35,504 nt of DNA from a virus: IMG/VR virus record IMGVR_UViG_3300021387_000081, positions 1 through 35,504 of that record; one strand, 5' to 3'. A program made the translations under genes and the position numbers. The first letter of the stretch is position 1. The number at the start of each line of letters is the position of its first letter. Of this stretch, positions 121 to 35,504 are shown piece by piece. Under the pieces are notes generated by a model, which was not told the origin of the DNA, made no database searches, and was given only the letters and a program-made list of their open reading frames with translations.

Positions 121-128
121 TGTTTACA

Positions 129-175
129 AGCATTTGCGACCGACAACAATGTCGGCGGCAAGTGCTATTTTTATT
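129..175 (+). promoter_or_regulatory. Conserved extended hairpin plus U-tract, copy A (upstream of protease)
   Basis: agcatttgc (129-137) pairs with gcaagtgct (158-166). Inner stem is ccgaca/tgtcgg with loop acaa, followed by atttttatt. Paralogous to copies at 1494 and 32984. Confidence 0.65.
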
Positions 176-195
176 CCCTGAAAGGATGTGAAAGA

Positions 196-777
196 ATGAA
201 AATCGAAGTCAGAGCTGACGGACTGCATATAAGCGGCTACGTCAACGTCACCGGCAAGCTGAGCAGACCGGTGATAACACCCAGAGGCAAAGTCCTTGAA
301 ACTATCGAGGAGAGAGCTTTCAGCGAGGCTATCAAGAAGAACGGCGACATCACGGTGACACTCGATCACGATCAGGGGCACGCCTATGCAAATACCCGTG
401 ACGGTTCTCTCGTTCTCCGTGAGGACGCTATCGGACTTCACGCCGATGTGCTCATCACAGATGAAACAGTCATCGAAATGGCACGCAAGGGCAAACTGAG
501 AGGCTGGTCCTTCGGTATGTTCAACGTACAGGACGAAATCGAGAGCCGCGGTGAGGACGAGCTGCCGATCAGACACGTCAAGAGCCTGGAACTGGATCAT
601 GTGTCCCTCATCAAGGACAAGATACCGTGCTACGCTGCGACATCGGTGGAGTGCCGTGCAGGCGGTGACATCGACATGGAGCTGCGTTCCCTCGATATCG
701 AGCCTGTGCTTGTCATCGAGAACAAGCCGGACTACAGCGATTATGAGAACAGGCTGAAAATGCTGGAATTCGAGTGA
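196..777 (+). CDS. HK97-family prohead protease (S78/U35-like)
   Basis: 193-aa ORF lying after the portal-side cassette ORFs and before the capsid gene, separated from it by the 778-1563 cassette. N-terminal MKIEVRADGL..GYVNV and the LDHD..H pattern are typical of prohead proteases. SD aaagga lies 9 nt upstream of the ATG. Confidence 0.85.
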   Translation: MKIEVRADGLHISGYVNVTGKLSRPVITPRGKVLETIEERAFSEAIKKNGDITVTLDHDQGHAYANTRDGSLVLREDAIGLHADVLITDETVIEMARKGKLRGWSFGMFNVQDEIESRGEDELPIRHVKSLELDHVSLIKDKIPCYAATSVECRAGGDIDMELRSLDIEPVLVIENKPDYSDYENRLKMLEFE

Positions 778-828: not shown

Positions 829-1179
829 ATGAATGGCAGCAGGAGTATAGGCGGCGGAAGTCGAAAGCTCTATCATCACGATCCGGATACCGGAGGTGGC
901 GGGAGCACGAAGAAAAGTGTTGACAAATCATCAGATGATGGTGTACAATATGGTAAAGAAGAAATCAAGAATGATTTCGATGGAAAACCATATACCTATC
1001 CTGAATTACATTTACCTAAGAAAGAATATGGCACTGTTATAAGGCAAATCGATGATAACTATGAATCTAAGTATAAAGGCAAGAGTATAGGCTTTCACAG
1101 TACGTCAAAATATACCTATAAATTTGAAATACGTGGATATAACGATTATAACATTTTTTCAAAATGGAAAAATGATTAA
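829..1179 (+). CDS. Leader-linker-variable domain module (type-1 leader). The conserved coding signal already starts at 778, in frame after the protease TGA
   Basis: Same frame as the protease. Codons 787-858 encode ELRYRQYIQLPNGKMNGSRSIGGG, matching portal residues encoded at 34278-34349. The C-terminal 75 aa are AT-rich and unrelated to the other cassettes. Confidence 0.55.
   Translation: MNGSRSIGGGSRKLYHHDPDTGGGGSTKKSVDKSSDDGVQYGKEEIKNDFDGKPYTYPELHLPKKEYGTVIRQIDDNYESKYKGKSIGFHSTSKYTYKFEIRGYNDYNIFSKWKND
920..949 (+). promoter_or_regulatory. Sigma-70-like promoter inside the linker codons (TTGACA-18-TACAAT)
   Basis: ttgaca at 920-925 and tacaat at 944-949. Flank aaaagtgTTGACAaatc matches the four other junction promoters. 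This is the weakest of the set. Confidence 0.45.
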
Positions 1180-1395: not shown

Positions 1396-1425
1396 ACCGC
1401 CCTCATTGAGAGCGGTTTTCTTATG
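1396..1425 (+). terminator. Intrinsic terminator T1 (family GCGGTTTTCTTATG)
   Basis: accgccctca/tgagagcggt stem followed by ttttcttatg. The tail is shared with T2, T3 and T4. Confidence 0.7.
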
Positions 1426-1493
1426 CCTAAAATACGCAAAACGCTCATAAAATGCGTATCTCATGCTTATGATACGCTCATAAAACGCAAAAA

Positions 1494-1540
1494 AGCATTT
1501 GCTAAGGACACAAATGTCCCTCGCAGGTGCTATTTTTATA
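1494..1540 (+). promoter_or_regulatory. Conserved extended hairpin plus U-tract, copy B (upstream of major capsid gene)
   Basis: agcatttgc (1494-1502) pairs with gcaggtgct (1523-1531). Inner stem is ggaca/tgtcc, followed by atttttata. It carries a compensatory change relative to copies A and C. Confidence 0.65.
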
Positions 1541-1563
1541 CCCATTTAAAGGAGGAAAAATCC

Positions 1564-2718
1564 ATGAAGAAACTTATCGAAAGAAGAGCCGGACTTGTAG
1601 TCCTTCTCAATTCCATGCTGGAAGCTGTAAAGACCGAAAACAGAGCCTTTACAGAAGAGGAGGCAAAGAAGTTTGACGAGACAGAGGCTGAGATCAGGCA
1701 GCTTGATGCTACTATCAAGGCGGAGGAGAGAGCGAAGGGGATAGCTGATCTCCCTGCACCTCAGGCAGCTCCCAAGGCTGAACAGCTCACACAGGAGCAG
1801 ATCGAGGAGAGAGCTTTCGCTGACTTCATAGGCGGCAAGATCACCGAGATGAGAGCAGGCGAACAGAACATCGACTGGACTAACGGTGCATCAACAGTGC
1901 CTACGACTATCGCCAAGCGTATCATCGATGCAGCAGTTGATATGTGTCCCATTCTCGCAGGAGCTGAGGTGTACCACGAAAAAGGCACGCTCAAGATCCC
2001 CAAGTGGACAAAGGCGAACAGCACCCACGATGTGACTGTAGCCTATGCAACTGAGTTCACTCCGCTCACAGCTGACAGCGGCAAGTTCACATCGGTGGAT
2101 CTGGGCGGATACCTTGCAGGTGCTCTCGTTCTTATCGGAAAGAGCGTTATAAACAGTTCAGCGATCAATGTGACAAATTTCGTCATCAACAAGATCGCTG
2201 AGAAAGTGGCACAGTTCCTTGAACAGGAGCTGCTCAAGGGCTCAGGTTCTTCCGCAGCTCAGGGCGCTACCAAGACAAGCAATGTGGTGACTACCGGCAC
2301 TGCGCTTGCTATCGGTTTGGATGATCTTATCGCACTTCAGGCTGCTGTAAAGCAGAAGTATCAGAAAAACTCCTGCTGGACAATGACATCCAATACTTTC
2401 ACTGCACTCAAACAGCTCAAAGACGGCGACAACAGACCTCTTATCCAGCCTGATGTTACAGCGGAATTCCCCTTCAGACTTCTCGGAAAGCCTGTGCATC
2501 TCTCTGATAATATGGACGAGATCGGCGGCAACAAGCTTGCTGTCCTCTACGGTGACTACAGCGGACTCTCCGTGAACTTCCGTGAGGATATCGGTATCGA
2601 GGTACTCAGGGAAGCATACCACACTCAGCATGCTATCGGCATTGATGCGTGGTTCGAGTTCGATTCAAAGGTAACAGATGAGCAGAAGCTTGCTGTGCTC
2701 AAGATCAAGGCATCATAA
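1564..2718 (+). CDS. Major capsid protein, HK97 fold, with N-terminal coiled-coil delta/scaffold-like region
   Basis: ATG 1564 lies 8 nt after aaggagg. N-terminus MKKLIERRAGL..EEEAKKFDE..IRQLDA is delta-domain-like. The length and position after the protease fit. The upstream 47 codons of the tracked ORF overlap hairpin B. Confidence 0.9.
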   Translation: MKKLIERRAGLVVLLNSMLEAVKTENRAFTEEEAKKFDETEAEIRQLDATIKAEERAKGIADLPAPQAAPKAEQLTQEQIEERAFADFIGGKITEMRAGEQNIDWTNGASTVPTTIAKRIIDAAVDMCPILAGAEVYHEKGTLKIPKWTKANSTHDVTVAYATEFTPLTADSGKFTSVDLGGYLAGALVLIGKSVINSSAINVTNFVINKIAEKVAQFLEQELLKGSGSSAAQGATKTSNVVTTGTALAIGLDDLIALQAAVKQKYQKNSCWTMTSNTFTALKQLKDGDNRPLIQPDVTAEFPFRLLGKPVHLSDNMDEIGGNKLAVLYGDYSGLSVNFREDIGIEVLREAYHTQHAIGIDAWFEFDSKVTDEQKLAVLKIKAS

Positions 2719-27170: not shown

Positions 27171-27363
27171 CACTGACATGCTCTACATGGCGAGCCTGCA
27201 AAAGAGGCTCGATGCATCAGAAGAGGAGAACCGGAAGCTGAAGGAGCTGCTGCGTGACATTCAGCCGCTCATAACCGGGGCGCTGTATGTGAACTACAAG
27301 CAGACCAAGGCTGCGGATGAGGTCTACGACAGGATAGTGAAGGCGCTGGGAGAGAAGCGATGA
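27163..27363 (+). CDS. Hypothetical protein
   Basis: 66 aa, overlapping its neighbours. Confidence 0.5.
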   Translation: MSDTDMLYMASLQKRLDASEEENRKLKELLRDIQPLITGALYVNYKQTKAADEVYDRIVKALGEKR

Positions 27364-27788
27364 CGGAGACTGAACTGACCACAAGGCACTGGCTGAACCG
27401 TGCCTTCTACGCGGACAAGAAAGCAAAGGCACTGGAAATGCTCGTCAGGCAGTGCAGAGAACGCGCTGAGGGGCTTTCACGATGCTCGGAGGGCAATGAC
27501 AAGGGCAGGAGCGACGGCGCCGAAAACGGCACGGAAAACGCTCTCATGAAGCTTGCGGAAATGGAGAGAAAAGCGGATGCCCAGAGAGTTGAGGCAGTGA
27601 ACGTCTTGGCAGAGATACAGACGATCATCTCCGGACTTCACGACGATGACCTTGAAGCTGTTCTGATACACAGATATATTCTGTTTCACACTATCGAGCA
27701 GACCGCGGAGATAATGAACTATCATCCGAACACTGTGAAGAGCAAGGTCAAGAAAGCAATACAGAAACTATGTACCGAAATGTCTTGA
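27360..27788 (+). CDS. Putative late-gene transcriptional regulator (sigma-70 region-4-like HTH; RinA/ArpU/DUF1492-type position)
   Basis: The C-terminus LIHRYILFHTIEQTAEIMNYHPNTVKSKVKKAIQKL resembles sigma region 4. It is the last gene before the packaging module. Confidence 0.55.
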   Translation: MTETELTTRHWLNRAFYADKKAKALEMLVRQCRERAEGLSRCSEGNDKGRSDGAENGTENALMKLAEMERKADAQRVEAVNVLAEIQTIISGLHDDDLEAVLIHRYILFHTIEQTAEIMNYHPNTVKSKVKKAIQKLCTEMS

Positions 27789-27941
27789 AATGTCCTTTCC
27801 TTATGTGATATGCTGTATACATAGAGATCAGGCAAGAGCCGGGAGCTTAGGAATTTCCTTCCGCTCAGCCTGCTCTCTGTCTCCTTTCTTTTGTTCTACA
27901 CATCATGATCTTATTTTATCTGCCGGTGACGGCAGACTTCT

Positions 27942-28016
27942 GGCAGGTTGGAACAGCGGCAGTTCGCAAGGCTCATAACCTTGAGGTCGTGGGTTCGAGT
28001 CCCACACCTGCAACCA
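27942..28016 (+). tRNA. tRNA with CAT anticodon (Met, or Ile2 if lysidine-modified)
   Basis: Manual cloverleaf: acceptor ggcaggt/acctgca, D stem gaac/gttc, anticodon stem caagg/ccttg with loop ctCATaa, T arm gtggg-ttcgagt-cccac, and an encoded ACCA. Positions 1 and 72 are G and A (unpaired). Confidence 0.8.
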
Positions 28017-28100
28017 GCAGCAGACATAGAAACTATATCTTCCTAACAGAGTACCGTTCCATTTGGGGCGGTATTTCTGTTATACACATGGAGGGATCAT

Positions 28101-28743: not shown

Positions 28744-29214
28744 ATGAAAGGACGTGATACTGTGGCGAGACCGGCAATGAGTGCGAAAACTACGTCAAAG
28801 CACCTTACGAAGGCGGAGGCTGAGGCAAAGTCCTCGACCGAAGAACTGCTCAGAGGCAGGGCAGACAGGCTGCGTCCGCCTAAGTATCTGACGACTGCGC
28901 AGAAGAAGATCTTCAAGTTCATCGTCCGGGAACTGGAGGGCAGCGGCATCCTTGGCAATCTGGACATCTATGTGCTGACCGAGTGCTGCATCGCGCTTGA
29001 CAGGATGCAGGAGATAGAGAGCAGGATCAATCAGGATCCGGTGCAGCTCAGCAATGACAAGCTGCTGCAATCGAAGGACAGATATACGAAGTCCTTCTTC
29101 CGCTGCTGCAATGAGCTGTGCCTGAGTCCTCAGAGCAGGGCGAAAATGGGCAACCTCAACTTGCAGGCGAAGGAAGAGAATCCGCTGCTGAAGGTGCTGA
29201 GCGATGATGAATAA
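28744..29214 (+). CDS. terS: Terminase small subunit (P27 family)
   Basis: Contains P.YLT..QKKIFKFIV.EL...GILGNLD...L...C.ALDR, typical of P27-family small subunits. Confidence 0.8.
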   Translation: MKGRDTVARPAMSAKTTSKHLTKAEAEAKSSTEELLRGRADRLRPPKYLTTAQKKIFKFIVRELEGSGILGNLDIYVLTECCIALDRMQEIESRINQDPVQLSNDKLLQSKDRYTKSFFRCCNELCLSPQSRAKMGNLNLQAKEENPLLKVLSDDE

Positions 29215-29839
29215 AGACTGGTTCATAGATTACGCGGAACATGCGGTCAGAGTGATAGACATCGAGACACGCTGGTATGAGCTCAGAGGCTGGATAACAA
29301 AAAACGGAAGGCATATCCTGATTGGCGATGATGAGGGTGGCAGCTCCACCAGCGGAGCAGGCAGAAAAGCTGCCAAAAAGGTTGACAAAGCCGGGGAAAG
29401 TGGTATAATTGAAGAAAAGACAGGAGAAACGGCGGGAACTGATGTGCATAAAGTTGGAAAGATAGATGTTGAAAAGTTTGAAACTATTGCAAATGGAAGA
29501 ATTCTCACCGACGAGGTGATCATAACAGATAATCGGATCGAACACATTATTGAGCGAAGAGGTCAGAAGTTTTATGACGATTTTAAAGGCTATTTTCCTG
29601 AAATAATAGAAGCACCCGACTATATATTCAAAGATGATATGGACAATACAGCTATTGTGTCTAAATCATATAGCCATAAGGGAAAAACAGTAAACTTAGT
29701 TCTTAGGCTCGTAGTTGAAGGGGAAAACCCAAGCTATAAGAATTCTATACTAACTGCAATTGGTGAGAACGAGAAAAGATTTGCTCAACGTTTACGCAAT
29801 AACGTTCCTGTGTATAAAAAAGTTGACAAATCAGAATAA
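29204..29839 (+). CDS. Type-2 leader, Gly/Ser linker and PBECR-like (barnase-EndoU-colicin E5/D-RelE fold) nuclease domain
   Basis: 211 aa. The leader is WFIDYAEHAVRVIDIETRWYELRGWITKNGRHILIG. The C-terminus ITDNRIEHIIERRG...PEIIEAPDYIFKD..NTAIVSK...VNLVLRL resembles phage PBECR domains. The gene sits between terS and terL. Confidence 0.7.
   Translation: MMNKDWFIDYAEHAVRVIDIETRWYELRGWITKNGRHILIGDDEGGSSTSGAGRKAAKKVDKAGESGIIEEKTGETAGTDVHKVGKIDVEKFETIANGRILTDEVIITDNRIEHIIERRGQKFYDDFKGYFPEIIEAPDYIFKDDMDNTAIVSKSYSHKGKTVNLVLRLVVEGENPSYKNSILTAIGENEKRFAQRLRNNVPVYKKVDKSE
29219..29325 (+). repeat. 107-nt direct repeat (leader coding), partner at 31762-31868
   Basis: 9 mismatches by eye. Five fall in the codons for ELRG and all five are synonymous. 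Confidence 0.9.
29382..29409 (+). promoter_or_regulatory. Extended -10 consensus promoter inside the linker codons (KKVDKAGESGII)
   Basis: TTGACA at 29382-29387, a 16-nt spacer ending in tgg, and TATAAT at 29404-29409. Confidence 0.55.
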
Positions 29840-29851
29840 ATGTGATATAAT
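29823..29851 (+). promoter_or_regulatory. Extended -10 consensus promoter at the 3' end of the PBECR-like ORF (KKVDKSE-stop)
   Basis: TTGACA at 29823-29828, a 17-nt spacer ending in tga, and TATAAT at 29846-29851. Confidence 0.6.
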
Positions 29852-29857
29852 GAAGGT

Positions 29858-29980
29858 AAGATAAGAGTAGGTTATCAGAGGTGGTAAATTTCGTAGCGAC
29901 CACACGCCGCTGGTAACGACAGGGAGTAATCCCGAGAGATGCAGGAGAATGCTACGCCTGCCTGATAACCACTCTTTCCA
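29858..29980 (+). ncRNA. Candidate structured RNA between terS-side cassette and terL
   Basis: A 15-bp long-range helix (29863-29878 with 29962-29976, one bulged A) encloses hairpins 29881-29903, 29922-29933 (GUAA loop) and 29941-29961. Two hairpin loops carry complementary hexamers cgtagc and gctacg. Confidence 0.45.
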
Positions 29981-29981
29981 G

Positions 29982-30014
29982 ACCGCTTCGAGAAATCGGA
30001 GCGGTTTTCTTATA
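29982..30014 (+). terminator. Intrinsic terminator T4 (family GCGGTTTTCTTAT)
   Basis: accgcttcga/tcggagcggt stem with GAAA loop, followed by ttttcttata. Confidence 0.7.
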
Positions 30015-30041
30015 CCCGGACGCAGAAAGGAGCTGACAGCA

Positions 30042-31742
30042 ATTGACATAGTGAAGAACAGCAGAGCTTATAAATATGCTCTGTGGTGTACCGAGCCGGA
30101 CAATCACTATGTCGGGCGGTACATAAAGAAGCAGGCGGTGATCTGGCTGGAGATAGCGGACGGTCAGAGCGATGAAGCATATGTCTGTGAGAAGCGCTGG
30201 AAGAAGATAACGAAGCTGCTGAAGATCATCATGCACCCTGACCTCGGACATTCGATGTATGAGGGACTTGAGGACTACGCAGTTTTATTCATATATGCCT
30301 TGTTCTGTACAAAGCGCCGGAGCGACAGTCTCCGGTACTACGAGACCGGGCTTTTAGAGATCGCGAGGAAGAACTTCAAGACGTTCACCTCAGCGGTCAT
30401 TTTTATTATCGGACTGCTGACAGAGCCGAAGTTCAGCCGCTTTTTCAGTGTGGCACCGGATCTGAAACTCTCCAGTGAATTGCAGGTGGCTATCAAGAAG
30501 ATAATCAAGTCGAGCCCCTGTCTGGCGGACGAGAAGGTGTTCAAGCTGCTGCGGAAGGAGATACGCTGCAAGCTGACTGACTCTGAGTATACTCCTCTTG
30601 CTTACTTACAGGACAAGATGGACGGAAAGCTTGCAAATATGTTTCTTGCTGACGAGTGCGGAGCAATGGACAACTATCCCATAGAAGCCATGCGATCCTC
30701 ACAGATCGTGCTGAGGGAGAAGCTTGGCATCATCATCTCTACCCAGTACCCCAATGACAACAATGCTATGCTGGAAGAGGTTGACAACGCCAAAAAGATC
30801 CTTGACGGACTACGGCATGGAAGGGTGTTCGCACTGCTCTATGAGCCGGATGATGAGTTCAAGACCGGCGATGCGTGGATGACATCGGACACAGCGCTGT
30901 ATCAGGCTAATCCGGTGGCGTACGCCCATGAATACGTCATGGATGACCTGAGGGCGAAGCGTCAGGCTGCCATAGATTATGAGAACAAGCGGGAGAACTT
31001 CCTGTGCAAGCACATGAACATCCTCTACAAAGGACTCGGAGTTGAGGGATTTGTCGAGATAACGAAGGTAAGACTGTGTAAAGTTCCGGCGGATGCTGAG
31101 TTCTGGAGGGGCAGACAGGTATATATCGGGCTTGACCTCTCTCAGACCGATGACAATACCTCGGTCGCAATGGTGACATATGATGCGGATGAGGATATGA
31201 TATACGTCAAGGTCTGGGGATTCATCCCGGCTGACCGCATCGACGAGAAATCCCAGCGCGAAAAGGTGGATTACAAGAAGCTCATAGCCGCAGGAGAATG
31301 CTTTGCCTGCGGTGATGAGGTCATTGACTACGGCTTTGTGGAGCGGTTCATACAGTCGCTGCCGGAGCAGTACGGCGTTGAGATAGTTCAGCTGGGCTTT
31401 GACCGGTACAATGCTATCTCCACAGTACAGAAGCTGGAAAGCGGAGAGGATCCGATCGAGTGCGTTGAGATTAGACAGCACAGCAGCGTCTTACACAGAC
31501 CAACGAAGCTGCTGAAAGAACGTATCCTGAGCCGTAAGCTGCGGTATGAGGAGAATCATATGCTGGAGATCAACTTCCAGAACGCCAGATGCACCGAGGA
31601 CACGAATCTGAACAAGTATGTCAACAAGAGAAAGTCCGCCGGCAAGGTGGATATGGTGGTATCTGTCATAAACGCGCTGTATCTCTTGCAGGTGAATGTG
31701 CTTGACAGCATGGAGCAGGGGTTCGGGTGCCAGATCATATGA
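30042..31742 (+). CDS. terL: Terminase large subunit (start uncertain: ATT 30042 or GTG 30051)
   Basis: A Terminase_1-like sequence over about 560 aa. The tracked 5' extension contains terminator T4. SD aaaggag lies 9 nt before ATT and 18 nt before GTG. Confidence 0.85.
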   Translation: MDIVKNSRAYKYALWCTEPDNHYVGRYIKKQAVIWLEIADGQSDEAYVCEKRWKKITKLLKIIMHPDLGHSMYEGLEDYAVLFIYALFCTKRRSDSLRYYETGLLEIARKNFKTFTSAVIFIIGLLTEPKFSRFFSVAPDLKLSSELQVAIKKIIKSSPCLADEKVFKLLRKEIRCKLTDSEYTPLAYLQDKMDGKLANMFLADECGAMDNYPIEAMRSSQIVLREKLGIIISTQYPNDNNAMLEEVDNAKKILDGLRHGRVFALLYEPDDEFKTGDAWMTSDTALYQANPVAYAHEYVMDDLRAKRQAAIDYENKRENFLCKHMNILYKGLGVEGFVEITKVRLCKVPADAEFWRGRQVYIGLDLSQTDDNTSVAMVTYDADEDMIYVKVWGFIPADRIDEKSQREKVDYKKLIAAGECFACGDEVIDYGFVERFIQSLPEQYGVEIVQLGFDRYNAISTVQKLESGEDPIECVEIRQHSSVLHRPTKLLKERILSRKLRYEENHMLEINFQNARCTEDTNLNKYVNKRKSAGKVDMVVSVINALYLLQVNVLDSMEQGFGCQII

Positions 31743-31749
31743 GGTGGAT

Positions 31750-32385
31750 ATGGATAATAATTGGTTCATGGACTACGCGGAACATGCGGTCAGAGTGATA
31801 GACATCGAGACACACTGGTATGAATTACGCGGCTGGATAACAAAAAACGGAAGGCATATACTGATTGGTGAAGAAGGCAGTTCTTCCGGCGGAGCAGGCA
31901 AGAGTATTGACAAATCTGCGAAAAGTGGTATAATAAAATCAGGAGCGGTGAGTGGTGCATTATCTCCTGCCAGCAAAGAAGCACAGGCTCATGCTGAGCA
32001 ATACTATGAGTCTGTTCGTAAAATGAAAACAGATGTAAAAAACATCTCAAATAATACCGGCTTTAGTGAAAGCGACATTTTGCAAATAAAGAATCATGTA
32101 TTCATAGAAGAACATGATTTGGGCGGAGACGTCCCAGAGCGTTTTTATCCCAATTATGCTATGGCTCAATCATGGCAAAGGCTTATTGAGGGTAAAAACA
32201 TCCAGAAGCACGATATTACACTGCTTCATCACGAAAAAATGGAAAGCGATTTGATGAAGAAGGGCTTATCTCAGATAAAAGCTCATAGTATATCTGAGAA
32301 AAAGTTTAATTATGCTAAAGAAAGTAGGGAGTATTATGCTGAGATTAATAAACATAGCGATAGGACTAAAAACAATCGAAGCTGA
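31750..32385 (+). CDS. Type-2 leader, Gly/Ser linker and an unrecognised C-terminal domain
   Basis: 211 aa. The leader is WFMDYAEHAVRVIDIETHWYELRGWITKNGRHILIG. The C-terminal region ...IKNHVFIEEHDLGG..PERFYPNYAMAQSWQRLIEGKNIQKHDITLLHHEKMESDL has no homology to the other cassettes. ATG 31750 follows gaggtgg. Confidence 0.7.
   Translation: MDNNWFMDYAEHAVRVIDIETHWYELRGWITKNGRHILIGEEGSSSGGAGKSIDKSAKSGIIKSGAVSGALSPASKEAQAHAEQYYESVRKMKTDVKNISNNTGFSESDILQIKNHVFIEEHDLGGDVPERFYPNYAMAQSWQRLIEGKNIQKHDITLLHHEKMESDLMKKGLSQIKAHSISEKKFNYAKESREYYAEINKHSDRTKNNRS
31762..31868 (+). repeat. 107-nt direct repeat (leader coding), partner at 29219-29325
   Basis: See the partner repeat. A 40-nt block tacgcggaacatgcggtcagagtgatagacatcgagacac is identical in both. 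Confidence 0.9.
31907..31934 (+). promoter_or_regulatory. Extended -10 consensus promoter inside the linker codons (KSIDKSAKSGII)
   Basis: TTGACA at 31907-31912, a 16-nt spacer ending in tgg, and TATAAT at 31929-31934. Confidence 0.55.
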
Positions 32386-32811: not shown

Positions 32812-32922
32812 ATGGAAGAAATGAATGTAGTTCTTGACGGATCAAATAAGGAAGGCTCTGAGAGACTTGCTGAAATGATCAAAAGACTTGAGGAAGAAAA
32901 GAAAAAAGATAAGACCGTCTGA
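32812..32922 (+). CDS. 36-aa charged peptide (speculative)
   Basis: SD aaaggtggg lies 8 nt upstream. The stop lies inside the T3 stem. Confidence 0.3.
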   Translation: MEEMNVVLDGSNKEGSERLAEMIKRLEEEKKKDKTV

Positions 32923-32944
32923 GAGATCAGGCGGTTTTCTTATG
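32914..32944 (+). terminator. Intrinsic terminator T3 (family GCGGTTTTCTTATG)
   Basis: accgtctga/tcaggcggt stem with loop gaga, followed by tttcttatg. Confidence 0.7.
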
Positions 32945-32983
32945 CCTATATTAAAACGCGAAGTGAAGTAAACAACGCTTGAA

Positions 32984-33030
32984 AGCATTTGTGACCGGCA
33001 CCAATGTCGGCTGCAAGTGCTGTTTTTATA
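32984..33030 (+). promoter_or_regulatory. Conserved extended hairpin plus U-tract, copy C (upstream of portal)
   Basis: agcatttgt (32984-32992) pairs with gcaagtgct (33013-33021). Inner stem is ccggca/tgtcgg, followed by gtttttata. Confidence 0.65.
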
Positions 33031-33047
33031 TCCAAACCACGAAAGGA

Positions 33048-34724
33048 GTGGTCAAAATAGGACTTTTCAGACGAAAAAAGCGGCAGGAAATAAGGGCGGA
33101 TACAGCTCAGAACGGCGAAAACACCATACTGACGTTCTTCGGACTGACCGGAGAACTTACGCGGGAGGCTGCGCTGAGCATACCGACGGTATCAGCCTGC
33201 ATCGGCAAGATAGGGGAGACCATATCGCGGCTGCCGGTGAAGCTTTACAGGAAGGATGAAGAGCAGGTCACGGAGATATCCGACGATGACCGGCTGAAGC
33301 TGCTCAACGGCAGCACCGGCGACACTCTCAGCACTGTTGACATGTGGAAAGCAGCGGTGGAGGACTACTACCTCGGGCGCGGAGCATGGATATACGTCAA
33401 CAGCGACGGTCTGAGTGTCCGGAGCCTGCACTATGTGGACAGCCGGAACGTGAGCATCATGTGCAACAATGATCCGATATTCAAGGCATTCAGAGTGCAG
33501 ATAAACGCGCAGAACTATTATGATTTCCAGTTTATCAAGCTGCTGAGGAAGACGCGGGACGGCTACACGAACATCCCGTTGCAGGAGGAGGCATCCTCGG
33601 TACTTTCGGCAGCGTGGAACGCTCTGAAGCTGGAGAACATGATGAACTCCAACGGCGGCTGCAAGCCGGGCTTCCTGAAAGCGAAGAACAGGCTCTCGGA
33701 TGCGGCGATAGCAGCGATCAGGGAAGGTTACCAGAAGGTCTATGACAACGAGCAGAAGCGTGACAAGATAATCGTGCTGAATGACGGTGTTGACTTCGAG
33801 GCGATATCCTCAACGGCTGCGGAGCTCCAGATGAACGAGAATAAGAAGACCAACAGCATCGAGATCTGCAAGCTGTTCGGCTTCCCTCATACGGTCATTG
33901 ACGGCGGAGCATCCGATGACGACAACAAGAAGTTCATTTCGGCGGTCATATCGCTCCTGAATCAGATCGAGACAGAGCTGGACAACGTTCTCCTGCTTGA
34001 ATCCGAGAAGGAGCAGGGGTATTACTGGGCGTTTGATACCAAGGAACTGACACGCGGCAGTCTTCTTGAACGTATGCAGGCTTATGAGATAGCCAAGCGG
34101 AACAACATCCTGCAGGTGGATGAGATCCGCCGGGAAGAGGACTATGAGCCTCTCGGCTTCAACTATATCACCCTCGGTCTTGCTGATGTTCTCCTTGATC
34201 CTGTTACTATGGAGGTCTATACCCCCAATACCGGACAGACAAAGAACCTTGTTACCGGTGAGGAACGGGCACTTACAGAGCTGAGGTACCGCCAATATAT
34301 CCAAGGTCCTGACGGAAAGATGCAGGGGAGCAGAAGCGTAGGCGGAGGAAGAGCGACGAAAAAGGTTGACAAATCCAAAAAAACTGATATAATAAAATTA
34401 GAGGATATTGAGGTCGGAAAGTCACTTGGAGCAAAGGCTAAAAACTATGACATTATGGATTTGGAAACGGGTGAACATTTTAACCTTGTTGAAAGGACCA
34501 GTTTGCAAGATGTTGAGGTCTTTGCTGGAAAGGGCGTTAAATCTGAGTTCCGAAAAGCTGATAAATATGCTAAAAAATACGGCGGTAAAGCCAAAGATTG
34601 GCAACACGCTAAAGGCACAGGAACTGTAGATTATTACGGTGAAGGGCGAAAAGCTGAATTACACTGGGCACAGTGTGAAGGTATAGGAAAACACGATTTT
34701 TTCATAAAGAGGTGGTTGGAATGA
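33048..34724 (+). CDS. Portal protein (HK97 family) with a roughly 130-aa C-terminal leader-linker-toxin-like extension (start uncertain: GTG 33048 or ATA 33057)
   Basis: The portal core includes ALSIPTVSACIGKIGETISRLPVKLY. After ELRYRQYIQGPDGKMQGSRSVGGG comes an AT-rich domain VGKSLGAKAKNYDIMDLETGEHF...WQHAKGTGTVDYYGEGRKAELHWAQ...FFIKRWLE, which resembles C-terminal toxin domains seen on MuF/gp7 head proteins. Confidence 0.85.
   Translation: MVKIGLFRRKKRQEIRADTAQNGENTILTFFGLTGELTREAALSIPTVSACIGKIGETISRLPVKLYRKDEEQVTEISDDDRLKLLNGSTGDTLSTVDMWKAAVEDYYLGRGAWIYVNSDGLSVRSLHYVDSRNVSIMCNNDPIFKAFRVQINAQNYYDFQFIKLLRKTRDGYTNIPLQEEASSVLSAAWNALKLENMMNSNGGCKPGFLKAKNRLSDAAIAAIREGYQKVYDNEQKRDKIIVLNDGVDFEAISSTAAELQMNENKKTNSIEICKLFGFPHTVIDGGASDDDNKKFISAVISLLNQIETELDNVLLLESEKEQGYYWAFDTKELTRGSLLERMQAYEIAKRNNILQVDEIRREEDYEPLGFNYITLGLADVLLDPVTMEVYTPNTGQTKNLVTGEERALTELRYRQYIQGPDGKMQGSRSVGGGRATKKVDKSKKTDIIKLEDIEVGKSLGAKAKNYDIMDLETGEHFNLVERTSLQDVEVFAGKGVKSEFRKADKYAKKYGGKAKDWQHAKGTGTVDYYGEGRKAELHWAQCEGIGKHDFFIKRWLE
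34366..34393 (+). promoter_or_regulatory. Extended -10 consensus promoter inside the portal linker codons (KKVDKSKKTDII)
   Basis: TTGACA at 34366-34371, a 16-nt spacer ending in tga, and TATAAT at 34388-34393. Confidence 0.55.
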
Positions 34725-34945: not shown

Positions 34946-35212
34946 ATGTGTAAACTTTTTGATGAATGGGCATCAGAGATTGAGATGTTTTGTCAGAAAA
35001 ATGATCTCAGCTTTGACAAGGCAAAGACACTTTCGCAGTGTTGGGGAAAAGACGATCTTATCTTGCAGTACTACGATAAAGAAAAGGGGAAAAACGGACT
35101 GCTCGATGAAACACCTATGCCTGTTGTTCTCTGGATAAAACGTGATAAGAATGGAAATCTTTCATTTGAAAAAACTGAGCATACTGAAAAATACCTTGGA
35201 AAAGTTTCCTAA
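34946..35212 (+). CDS. 88-aa hypothetical protein (cassette cargo)
   Basis: ATG 34946 lies 7 nt after agggag. It is followed directly by terminator T2. Confidence 0.6.
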   Translation: MCKLFDEWASEIEMFCQKNDLSFDKAKTLSQCWGKDDLILQYYDKEKGKNGLLDETPMPVVLWIKRDKNGNLSFEKTEHTEKYLGKVS

Positions 35213-35221
35213 TACTTCAAA

Positions 35222-35251
35222 ACCGCCCTCACTGAGAGCGGTTTTCTTATG
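35222..35251 (+). terminator. Intrinsic terminator T2 (family GCGGTTTTCTTATG)
   Basis: accgccctca/tgagagcggt followed by ttttcttatg. It differs from T1 at one loop base. Confidence 0.7.
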
Positions 35252-35274
35252 TCCATTTGAAGGAGGTGAGGAGA

Positions 35275-35504
35275 ATGGACGAGAAAGCCTTACAGATAGT
35301 CAGAGATTATATATTTGCACATCTCGACAAGACGGATACTGTTCCGCCTTTTGATGTCTATATGGTCTGGAAGTGCAAAGCCTTGCAGAACTGGAAGTAT
35401 CTTATCTCCAGTACGCTGTGCGACGGTATGTACTATGAGCTGACATACAACGGCGACAAGAAGGAATGGTATCTCGACGCTTACAAGAAGTTCGAGAATG
35501 TTGT
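35275..35504 (+). CDS. Small conserved phage protein (79 aa in total; continues at 1-120)
   Basis: ATG 35275 follows aggaggtgag. Translation MDEKALQIVRDYIFAHLDKTDTVPPFDVYMVWKCKALQNWKYLISSTLCDGMYYELTYNGDKKEWYLDAYKK resembles a widespread head-module hypothetical family. Confidence 0.75.
   Translation, partial: MDEKALQIVRDYIFAHLDKTDTVPPFDVYMVWKCKALQNWKYLISSTLCDGMYYELTYNGDKKEWYLDAYKKFENV
35398..35504. repeat. Terminal overlap identical to 1-107
   Basis: See feature 1-107. Confidence 0.95.

Follow-up and report, generated by a model that had tools for sequence, protein, structure and literature searches.

E, a family of terminator-type hairpins next to promoter-bearing accessory cassettes in the head-gene region of temperate Ruminococcus siphoviruses: a candidate transcriptional insulator and recombination joint

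Intrinsic terminators rely on two critical parts, the base of the stem and the U-tract. In temperate phages of the HK97/HK022 type, terminators of this kind close the so-called morons, units consisting of a promoter, a gene and a terminator which are situated between late genes. Other repeated hairpins are found in different settings: the RNase III sites of phage T7 (R0.3, R1.1 and others) comprise a helix of about 20 bp without an obligatory U-tract, and the REP/BIME and Correia-type repeats are chromosomal, occur in both orientations and reach hundreds of copies. In T4-like phages, the PeSL elements combine a sigma-70 early promoter and a stem-loop in a unit of ~50-70 bp, located in early hyperplastic regions (PMC2839356, PMC4122927). 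Here we describe a widespread and previously undescribed family of terminator-type hairpins, which we will refer to as E, starting from three copies in the late region of an uncultured phage.

The window, i.e., the whole stretch of 35,504 nucleotides analyzed here, is a circular contig with an exact terminal overlap of 107 nt. It represents a temperate siphovirus of the HK97-like kind, which encodes a tyrosine integrase, Rha, a GH25 lysin and a tape measure protein, together with the packaging and head proteins TerS, TerL, portal, S78 protease and capsid. A megablast search against 50,697 deposited phage genomes gave no phage relative of the head region. The following genes are central to this work:

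33048..34724, + strand: portal protein with a C-terminal extension (PF04860 at residues 46-365)
196..777, + strand: prohead serine protease (Peptidase_S78)
1564..2718, + strand: HK97-type major capsid protein (PF05065)
27360..27788, + strand: late-gene regulator candidate (Sigma70_r4_2 / DUF1492, LtrA/LtrB type; PMC3753634)

The start of the portal gene is non-canonical and uncertain (GTG at 33048 or ATA at 33057). E is defined as a 38-nt two-tier hairpin followed by the tail ATTTTTAT(A/T)(C/T)CC, and its three copies, at 32984-33033, 129-178 and 1494-1543 with the tail included, lie where the original prediction had placed them, as confirmed by pattern, shuffles and covariance model. The pattern AGCATTTG-N21-GCARGTGCT has three exact matches in the window, all of them on the + strand, and none in 100 dinucleotide-preserving shuffles; with a covariance model built from 50 family members the three copies reach 75-80 bits, and the window yields no fourth one when the filters are off. 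With their flanks, the copies are:

32976..33036, + strand: E copy 1 (hairpin 32984-33021, U-tract and tail 33022-33033; 75.3 bits)
121..181, + strand: E copy 2 (hairpin 129-166, tail 167-178; 80.4 bits)
1486..1546, + strand: E copy 3 (hairpin 1494-1531, tail 1532-1543; 76 bits)

Copy 1 has the 5' flank CGCTTGAA and is followed by the Shine-Dalgarno sequence (SD) of the portal gene (33042-33048). Copy 2 begins 8 nt past the stop codon (118-120) of a DUF6275 accessory ORF and has the protease SD downstream, and copy 3, whose inner stem is of a different type (type B, GGACA/TGTCC), has the capsid SD downstream. The conserved unit includes a 5' flank, (A)ACGCTT(A/G)(C/A)A, as well as the ATTTTTAT(A/T)(C/T)CC tail; the U-tract first noticed after the hairpin is indeed there, and the tail, originally delimited too short, extends further. 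The spacing proposed for the SD also has to be corrected, since in the window copies it lies 2-11 nt past the end of the conserved tail, which is 14-20 nt past the end of the hairpin, with the start codons ~27-33 nt past the hairpin.

As RNA of the + strand, the three copies fold at -19 to -24 kcal/mol (z -2.9 to -5.1) into the two-tier shape that had been claimed, consisting of an outer stem of 9-10 bp, an internal loop, an inner stem of 5-6 bp and a 4-nt loop. The - strand folds worse (z +0.2 to -3.5), because an outer-stem U.G pair turns into A.C there. In an alignment of 32 sequences, fitted to the model and to that extent favouring the structure, although the variants can also be read from the raw sequences, 93.6% of the cells are paired (at most 51% with slid partners), and both sides change at 8 of the 15 stem pairs. 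Outer pair 4 is AU in 27 sequences and GC in 5; outer pair 5 is UG (18), CG (9) or UA (2), and outer pair 6 is UA (15), CG (9) or UG (8). The C:G to G:C swap noted in the inner stem of the capsid copy recurs in the family (CG 30, GC 12), and the argument that compensatory and G-U changes speak against plain duplication is borne out across this large family. The wobbles of the stem are compatible with the + strand only. Because the stem pairs covary and the wobbles fit this strand alone, we conclude that E is a sense-strand RNA hairpin; being stable and followed by a U-tract, it keeps the terminator-like appearance first attributed to it.

The hairpin is far from uniform, ranging in length from 18 to 38 nt within the family. 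Its inner part occurs in at least four versions: type A (CCGACA/TGTCGG), type B, type C, in which the outer stem is lengthened by AAC/GTT and the centre is AGTTTGAAACT, and type D, which has the type C centre inverted. Model- and position-based searches that did not force the outer stem additionally yielded outer-stem variants in which the changes are compensatory, such as AGCGTTTGC/GCAGGCGCT, in which A-U becomes G-C, GCAAATGCT, in which U.G becomes U-A, and further AGCACC/GGTGCT, AGCGTATGCCG/CGGTATGCGCT and AGCACTATG/CATAGTGCT. The long E has 15 bp and a 2x2 internal loop; the short E (AGCACC-loop-GGTGCT) is an 18-nt hairpin with a 6-bp stem, in which the stem base and the tail alone are retained. 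The U.G wobble at outer pair 5 is retained in most copies, partly through ascertainment by the search pattern. What stays constant is the stem base AGC(A/G)..(U/C)GCU together with the U-tract, and the general plan of E can be written as AGC(A/G)...(U/C)GCU, then AUUUUUAU, then ACCC. In all copies and variants (A/G/U/C)UUUUU(A/C)U is found 3' of the stem, with one non-U base before the five U; the stem base of E is no more than moderately GC-rich, and an A stands between the stem and the five U.

Pattern scans detected E in ~45 uncultured viral contigs of IMG/VR and in ~35 genome contigs, almost all of them from Ruminococcus (R. flavefaciens, R. albus and rumen MAGs), which points to a rumen Ruminococcus as the host. 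Among the strains with E are R. flavefaciens SAb67 (two copies, in L166) and FD-1, and R. albus AR67 and KH2T6. The family amounts to ~100 copies. A first loose pattern for viral contigs gave only 5 real elements out of 120, the rest being mostly chance matches within coding regions, and the pattern was therefore tightened with the T-tract; a broad regular expression (AGC..GCT+TTTT), which matched minus-strand reads and chance hairpins, was left out of the counts. No copy of E was found in deposited phages by blastn against the 50,697 genomes. Rfam 15, a check already named in the original prediction, returned no family at E at gathering and permissive thresholds, with a best match of 22.6 bits versus a gathering threshold of 59; tRNA and skipping-rope are the only families at threshold in the window. 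The literature searched contained no description of E.

The orientation of E is always that of the sense strand of the flanking genes. In ~70 distinct contexts it begins 0-12 nt past the stop codon of a same-strand gene, with an SD and a start codon 5-25 nt past its tail; the distance from tail to SD goes down to 0 nt (in L145/L149). The genes 5' of E are mostly small accessory genes, crAss001_48-related or DUF6275, and those 3' of it encode HNH endonuclease, TerL, S78 protease, acidic scaffold-like or capsid-region proteins, among others, or are small accessory genes. The idea that E is linked to exactly the three most essential head genes does not survive this comparison, since in relatives it also precedes HNH, TerL, scaffold-like and accessory genes. 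As with the REP/BIME and Correia-type repeats, E is a short, co-transcribed intergenic palindrome that could be a terminator, a stability element or a recombination site; unlike them, it is carried by phages, each with 1-3 copies, and is strictly co-oriented.

A late promoter, or a DNA site for the late regulator, upstream of each head gene was among the roles initially suggested. Such a site would agree with the location of E immediately 5' of late genes, with its inverted repeat, which is like some activator sites, and with the sigma-region-4-like regulator that the phage encodes. We nevertheless regard it as extremely unlikely, because of the variable hairpin length (18 to 38 nt) and of SDs that follow the tail at a distance of zero, leaving no room for a leader. 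Across the variants the spacing between the arms goes from ~6 to 21 nt, four unrelated versions of the inner part are all self-complementary, something that a protein site would not need, and the tail is devoid of a -10-like hexamer with T at its last position; furthermore, in the window E is missing from the stretch that separates the regulator gene from the first late ORFs, and E is optional at orthologous junctions, as detailed below.

Several other candidates were tried and rejected. The sole match to a sigma-70 promoter in or across E (TTTACA-16-AACAAT at 123) has no conserved counterpart in types B, C and D, and an ECF-type or bipartite promoter across the hairpin was ruled out by the variable hairpin length. 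An integron attC-like site, with its conserved stem base and variable centre, was discarded on account of the RNA-type wobbles and of finding neither a GTTRRRY core nor an integron integrase. A tRNA-like or RNase P substrate was ruled out by the position of the CCC, 9 nt from the stem, and sequestration of the SD by the ACCC tail by the lack of stable pairing.

A second hairpin family shares this part of the genome. It is named T1 here, and is defined as a GC-rich hairpin CCGCC..GGCGG followed by TTTTCTTAT(A/G)(C/T)C, with four copies in the window plus a degenerate one:

29983..30017, + strand: T1 hairpin (CCGCTTCG..CGGAGCGG) and TTTTCTTATACCC (-18.6 kcal/mol, z -4.2)
32914..32946, + strand: T1 hairpin and TTTTCTTATGCC, 38 nt 5' of E copy 1, with which it forms a tandem pair (-17.8 kcal/mol)
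35222..35254, + strand: T1 hairpin and TTTTCTTATGTCC, after ORF 34946-35212
1396..1427, + strand: T1 hairpin and TTTTCTTATGCC, after ORF 1191-1388 and 66 nt 5' of E copy 3
28052..28087, + strand: degenerate T1-like hairpin and TTTCTGTTATACAC (-23.6 kcal/mol)

The T1 at 29983 is the terminator of a skipping-rope RNA (29871-29969; Rfam, 51 bits), a motif reported to have Rho-independent terminators after it (PMC5737381), and lies directly 5' of the TerL SD (30026-30032). The one at 35222 lies directly 5' of the SD of the DUF6275 ORF (starting at 35277), one small gene before the protease E, and the degenerate one is found between tRNA-Met and the first late ORF (28101). The stems of E and T1 are unrelated and their tails are nearly alike, with TTAT(A/G)(C/T)CC in common. 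Both families are limited to the cassette-rich late region, from 28050 through the wrap to 1543, and neither E nor T1 occurs in the tail and lysis genes of the window. A search for a motif common to the presumed late-promoter region (27789-28100) and to the regions 5' of E and T1 recovered only T1-derived words.

The same region contains sigma-70 promoters of high quality on the late strand:

34366..34393, + strand: perfect extended sigma-70 promoter (TTGACA-16-TGaTATAAT), in the C-terminal extension of the portal ORF
31907..31934, + strand: perfect sigma-70 promoter, inside ORF 31696-32385
920..949, + strand: 11/12 sigma-70 promoter, inside ORF 829-1179
29823..29851, + strand: perfect sigma-70 promoter, driving the skipping-rope RNA that is closed by T1 (29983)

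With another one at 29382, those at 31907, 34366 and 920 make up the in-ORF promoters, which are perfect or 11/12 extended sigma-70 sequences, the fifth promoter being that of the skipping-rope RNA. The promoter at 31907 heads a unit closed by T1 (32914) and E copy 1, the one at 34366 a unit closed by T1 (35222) and E copy 2, and the one at 920 a unit closed by T1 (1396) and E copy 3. Including the unit that starts at 29823, promoter units are closed by T1 and/or E before TerL (29823), portal (31907), protease (34366) and capsid (920). All four in-ORF promoters share one reading frame, in which they encode a (V/I)DK...G(I/V)(I/Q) linker, which precedes C-terminal domains, one of them PBECR2 nuclease-like. 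These toxin-like ORFs, inserted between the head genes, resemble the phage-borne polymorphic toxins of MuF proteins (PMC5576092).

This arrangement extends to the family. In 40 distinct E contexts, surveyed for promoters with at least 11/12 consensus positions within 1.7 kb, a same-strand promoter is found upstream of E in 33 and downstream in 3, and an opposite-strand promoter in a single context on each side. The family promoters are located 0.3-1.6 kb upstream of E, the usual order being promoter, 0.5-1 kb, T1, small gene, E and core gene. In many relatives the cassette runs T1, tail, SD, small gene, stop, E, tail, SD, core gene; a gene between T1 and E is common, and the cassette promoter could express such a gene only via read-through of T1. 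The contents of the cassettes are C-terminal toxin-like domains, small immunity-like ORFs and genes of crAss001_48 or DUF6275 type. The position of E tracks a strong upstream sigma-70 promoter unit and not the head genes as such; the apparent tie to three head genes arises because accessory cassettes were inserted there, and E is probably not a dedicated head-gene switch.

The reading that we favour, with moderate confidence, takes E for an intrinsic terminator that would insulate the head genes from the cassette promoters and would at the same time act as a recombination joint. E and T1 would be two lineages punctuating the packaging and head part of the late operon in temperate Ruminococcus siphoviruses, in which accessory cassettes with their own near-consensus sigma-70 promoters would have been inserted between TerL, portal, protease and capsid. 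In the prophage, host RNA polymerase starting at the embedded promoters would meet first T1 and then E and be halted there, short of the next head gene, which, as we propose, keeps the head genes silent in this state. During lytic growth the late transcript would have to read through the hairpins, whether by leakiness, by an antiterminator, or by coupled translation across the stops that abut or overlap the 5' arm of E; there are ~8 E/T1-type hairpins between the presumed late promoter and the capsid gene. E has the features of an intrinsic terminator, namely a stable sense-strand stem-loop, a U-tract 3' of the stem and a co-oriented position at the 3' end of a unit. The constant U-tract, the conservation of the stem base alone, the interchange with the terminator of a small RNA, the one-sided promoters and the confinement to the cassette region all support this reading, as does a T1-spacer-E unit that follows an ordinary terminator in R. 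flavefaciens FD-1. Against it stand the modest GC content of the stem base, the A before the five U, the gene commonly found between T1 and E, the tail common to both families, the U.G wobble kept at outer pair 5, a short E with no adjacent cassette in the closest relative, and the ~8 hairpins to be passed with no antiterminator found among the annotated genes.

Morons, together with the PeSL elements discussed below, are the closest described parallels to E. As in morons, autonomous sigma-70 units are found between head genes on the late strand, a U-tract hairpin closes each of them, and read-through would be needed. The inserts also have the diagnostic composition of morons, i.e., their own promoter, non-structural genes and a terminator-type hairpin between late genes, all of it missing in relatives, in which the protease abuts the portal or the capsid gene. 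Unlike in morons, the promoters are embedded here in the coding sequence of toxin-like fusion proteins, two sequence-conserved terminator families are reused across junctions and phages, and the hairpins are often in tandem with an extra promoter-less gene between them. Furthermore, and unlike the HK97/HK022-type phages, the host belongs to the Clostridia class and the regulator is of the Ltr type, not a Q-type antiterminator.

Orthologous protease and capsid junctions, gathered without reference to E, reveal which part of this punctuation is conserved. Among 28 protease junctions, 12 have E or an E variant, 7 have T1, either by itself or with another hairpin after it, and one (L239) has a weak 4-bp AT-rich hairpin with a T-tract; the remaining 8 have no hairpin, with the portal gene abutting. 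The hairpins at this junction comprise canonical E, AGCGTTTAC.., AGCACCATGT.., AGCGTATGCCG.., AGCACTATG.. with TTTTTTGTTGCC, T1, and an unrelated GC hairpin with TTTTTT; in the relatives L226/7 and L246-8 unrelated hairpins without the tail occupy the protease site. Among 24 capsid junctions, 10 carry E (mostly the short form, after a second small hairpin, GTGCAGTCAACTGCAC), one carries T1 and 10 carry nothing, and the most distant ones have other terminator-like hairpins. No hairpin precedes the capsid genes whose products share 74-82% identity with the query, and there the protease gene overlaps the capsid start. The closest relative (L227/L271; capsid 100% and protease 99% identical) is devoid of the DUF6275 gene and the E before the protease, as well as of the whole pre-capsid cassette; a short E is kept between its protease and capsid genes, with no cassette or promoter between them. 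At both the protease and the capsid junction the T-tract stays while the hairpin is swapped.

From these surveys, the conserved item is a hairpin plus a U-tract and not the sequence of E, and the hairpin itself can be dispensed with; at orthologous junctions E and T1 can stand in for each other. The presence of T1, of unrelated T-tract hairpins or of nothing at orthologous protease and capsid junctions is a second point on which the link to head genes fails.

The junctions also bear on a role of E as a processing or stability determinant of one long late transcript, which would be cut by an enzyme of the RNase Y or RNase III type; E would then cap the upstream 3' end or the 5' end of the downstream head-gene mRNA, setting the amounts of portal, protease and capsid messages. 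In phages with Ltr-type regulators, the late cluster is reported to be expressed from one promoter and rapidly processed into RNAs of 2-4 kb (PMC3152322, PMC3753634), and for this reason we keep such a role, albeit an unlikely one, as the main rival; the phage studied here encodes a regulator of the LtrA/LtrB type. Purely intra-operon copies would fit it well, as in the protease-E-capsid arrangement of L227/L271, where the short E without a cassette implies that insulation from an adjacent cassette is not its whole role. Cleavage of single-stranded RNA could plausibly take place at the conserved AU-rich 5' flank and at the AUUUUUAUA tail, and the two-tier shape is reminiscent of the RNase III sites of T7, with which E shares the intercistronic position, the internal loop between upper and lower stem, and the repetition before several genes. 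Unlike those sites, E has at most 15 bp, and its U-tract is its most constant part; the 6-bp stem of the short forms would hardly suffice for RNase III, whose sites comprise about two helical turns, usually with an internal loop at the scissile position. The T-tract, which a stabiliser could do without, outlasts the replacement of the hairpin here, and E swaps with T1, a canonical GC-rich terminator. In addition, the hairpin is not needed for capsid expression, given the relatives with 74-82% identical capsids that have none, and a processing model does not predict the association with promoters.

Returning to E and T1 as terminators, their shared tail is left unexplained by this model. That an ATACCC tail is a general terminator feature was rejected, since among other terminators of the same loci only 2 of 27 (a small sample, perfect stems only) have a tail of the E/T1 type. 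A specific tail common to unrelated stems, and missing from other terminators, would be accounted for if E and T1 were conditional terminators, in which a phage-specific protein or RNA binds the stem base or the UAUACCC tail, as RNA or DNA, for late antitermination. The passage of ~8 hairpins is logically required for the expression of TerL, portal, protease and capsid, and the conserved U.G wobble and 5' flank suggest a sequence-specific constraint. We consider this very unlikely, given that no candidate antiterminator was found among the annotated genes of the window, that tail-less unrelated hairpins occupy the same sites in L226/7 and L246-8, and that the conservation of the outer stem is largely a collection artefact, as variation in the junction surveys indicates. 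In lambda tR'/Q and other processive antitermination systems, such as conAn of Gram-positive conjugative plasmids (PMC8191782), terminators likewise separate a strong promoter from late or transfer genes that are essential, which implies that read-through has to be licensed; the parallel is a logical one only, and unlike in those systems neither an antiterminator (protein or RNA) nor a QBE, nut or put-like site was found here.

A related proposal, to which we attach equally little credence, goes further and makes E and T1 the operators of an antitermination late-gene switch, with TerL, portal, protease and capsid each expressed from the nearest embedded promoter. The embedded promoters would fire constitutively, and in the lysogen their transcripts would stop at T1/E; after induction, a phage factor would recognise the module of hairpin, U-tract and UAUACCC and thereby cause read-through. 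The factor might be the Sigma70_r4/DUF1492 protein or the product of an unannotated small ORF. If true, this switch would amount to lambda-Q-like logic in a siphovirus of a Clostridia-class host, with distributed promoter-terminator pairs replacing one late promoter.

The favoured reading, of E as terminator, insulator and joint, gives it a second function in exchange. Starting from 59 context pairs that are at least 85% identical over the 125 nt 5' of E, similarity goes on further upstream in 36 and across E in 9; in the downstream mirror test, the corresponding numbers are 40 and 9 out of 58. Similarity between phages breaks ~4x more often at E than beside it. The same gene junction carries inner-stem type A, B or C depending on the phage, and truncated E copies are found in tandem with full ones. 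E marks module-swap points between phages, and we propose that it is a preferred site of homologous or illegitimate exchange, by which modules are shuffled, since many copies have stem base, tail and 5' flank in common.

In this respect E is comparable to the PeSL elements, which are also small conserved repeats with a terminator stem-loop among accessory genes, whose recombination shuffles modules (PMC2839356, PMC4122927), and as in PeSL the mosaic breakpoints coincide with the repeat. Unlike PeSL, E has no promoter hexamers at fixed spacing in or beside it, and it is situated in the late head module of temperate siphoviruses, PeSL belonging to lytic myoviruses; there is no sequence similarity between them. 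Lacking a promoter within the unit, E does not qualify as a PeSL.

If the favoured reading is true, the locus shows a temperate phage tolerating strong, constitutively promoted cassettes of toxin- and immunity-like genes within its head-gene operon, where reusable terminator modules fence each insert and double as cassette-exchange joints; the concepts of PeSL and moron would thus be extended to uncultured rumen Ruminococcus siphoviruses. It also raises the question of how the late transcript of an Ltr-type phage passes ~8 terminator-like hairpins on its way to the capsid gene. For annotation, AGCATTTGC..GCAAGTGCT-ATTTTTATACCC and CCGCC..GGCGG-TTTTCTTATACCC provide a signature of module boundaries.

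The mosaic joints can also be approached from the DNA level. E would then be mainly a palindromic repeat promoting recombination or template switching, akin to a cassette boundary or a miniature mobile element, and any effect on transcription would be a by-product. We hold this to be distinctly unlikely: the wobbles are consistently G-U on the sense strand and A-C on the other, the orientation is always that of transcription, neither target-site duplications nor a dedicated recombinase were found, and the conservation of the T-tract in all variants argues for selection on an RNA-level function. In its favour are the clustering of mosaic breakpoints at E, the exchange of types A, B and C at one junction together with the inverted C segment of type D, and the tandem truncated copies and short forms. 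The borders of the cassettes, T1 at the left and E at the right, with the TTATRCC tail common to both, point in the same direction, as does the presence or absence of E between near-identical phages (the window and L227). Finally, R. flavefaciens FD-1 has a T1-spacer-E unit after an ordinary terminator, between convergent genes, in a chromosomal context that is not phage-like.

Extended sigma-70 promoters that match the consensus fully or almost fully (TTGACAA...GTGGTATAAT) are predicted within coding sequences of the window, and intra-ORF promoters of the same kind are present in more than 60 related loci besides it. The reading frame in which they are embedded is constant, without exception, and the promoter sequence is translated as a (V/I)DK...G(I/V)(I/Q) linker, after which variable C-terminal domains follow; among these are the C-terminal extension carried by the portal ORF and the PBECR2 nuclease-like ORF (29204-29839). 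The codons differ between hexamers that are themselves invariant, so it is the promoter that seems to be under selection. The embedded promoters probably drive small downstream ORFs, perhaps immunity-like, in lysogens. These promoters and the other transcription elements of the window are as follows:

29382-29409, predicted extended sigma-70 promoter
31907-31934, predicted extended sigma-70 promoter
34366-34393, predicted extended sigma-70 promoter
920-949, predicted extended sigma-70 promoter
29823-29851, own consensus promoter of the skipping-rope RNA
29871-29969, skipping-rope RNA (RF02924, 51 bits)
29983-30017, T1 hairpin, terminator of the skipping-rope RNA
32914-32946, T1 hairpin
35222-35254, T1 hairpin
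1396-1427, T1 hairpin
about 28052-28087, degenerate T1-like hairpin

The skipping-rope RNA is situated between the PBECR2-like ORF and TerL, and the TerL ORF as seemingly annotated, from ATG 29949, would traverse both this RNA and its terminator. TerL translation probably begins instead at ATT 30042 or GTG 30051, downstream of a Shine-Dalgarno sequence (SD) at 30026-30032. The portal start is likely to be non-canonical: within 33042-33060 no ATG lies close to its SD (AAAGGAG, 33042-33048), and two other in-frame codons are candidates, GTG 33048 overlapping the SD and ATA 33057 ideally spaced from it.

T1, a second, GC-rich family of conserved hairpins (CCGCC..GGCGG followed by TTTTCTTATRCC), has in common with E, the two-tier hairpin preceding the portal, protease and capsid genes, a TTATRCC tail that is rare among the other terminators of the same loci (2/27); the stems of the two are unrelated. 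A tRNA-Met (CAT) gene (27942-28016) separates the late-regulator gene from the first late ORFs, with a degenerate T1-like hairpin on its 3' side.

In front of the capsid gene, the spacer that separates T1 from E (1428-1493) contains a direct repeat, ACGCTCATAAAA (1441-1452 and 1473-1484), and an ATACGCA..TGCGTAT inverted repeat; it is nearly identical in the related locus L074, and other phages carry a different small hairpin (GTGCAGTCAACTGCAC) at this site. An apparently unstructured CA-rich spacer (CCAAATAACAGCAAATATCAACAAATAACATCAAAAC) recurs in L124, L128, L189, L127, L137, L163 and L204, with T1 or a 3'-truncated E on one side and a full E on the other. The truncated copies stop where this spacer starts, suggesting that they arose by illegitimate recombination at CTTA/CCTTA microhomology. 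In Ruminococcus flavefaciens FD-1 (Contig50; L189 4760-4910), an ordinary terminator, T1, the CA spacer and E stand in tandem, with a host-like gene of 951 aa on one side and a convergent gene on the other, outside any obvious prophage; this array is perhaps a remnant, or else a T1-E unit that is mobile.

The window has an exact 107-nt terminal overlap (1-107 = 35398-35504) and is therefore a circularly closed contig, whose junction is spanned by a DUF6275 ORF running from 35277 to 118-120. In some relatives (L155 7355-11925) portal is followed in turn by a MuF-type toxin fusion, T1, E, HNH and TerL, an unusual packaging-module arrangement in which the terminase genes come after portal.
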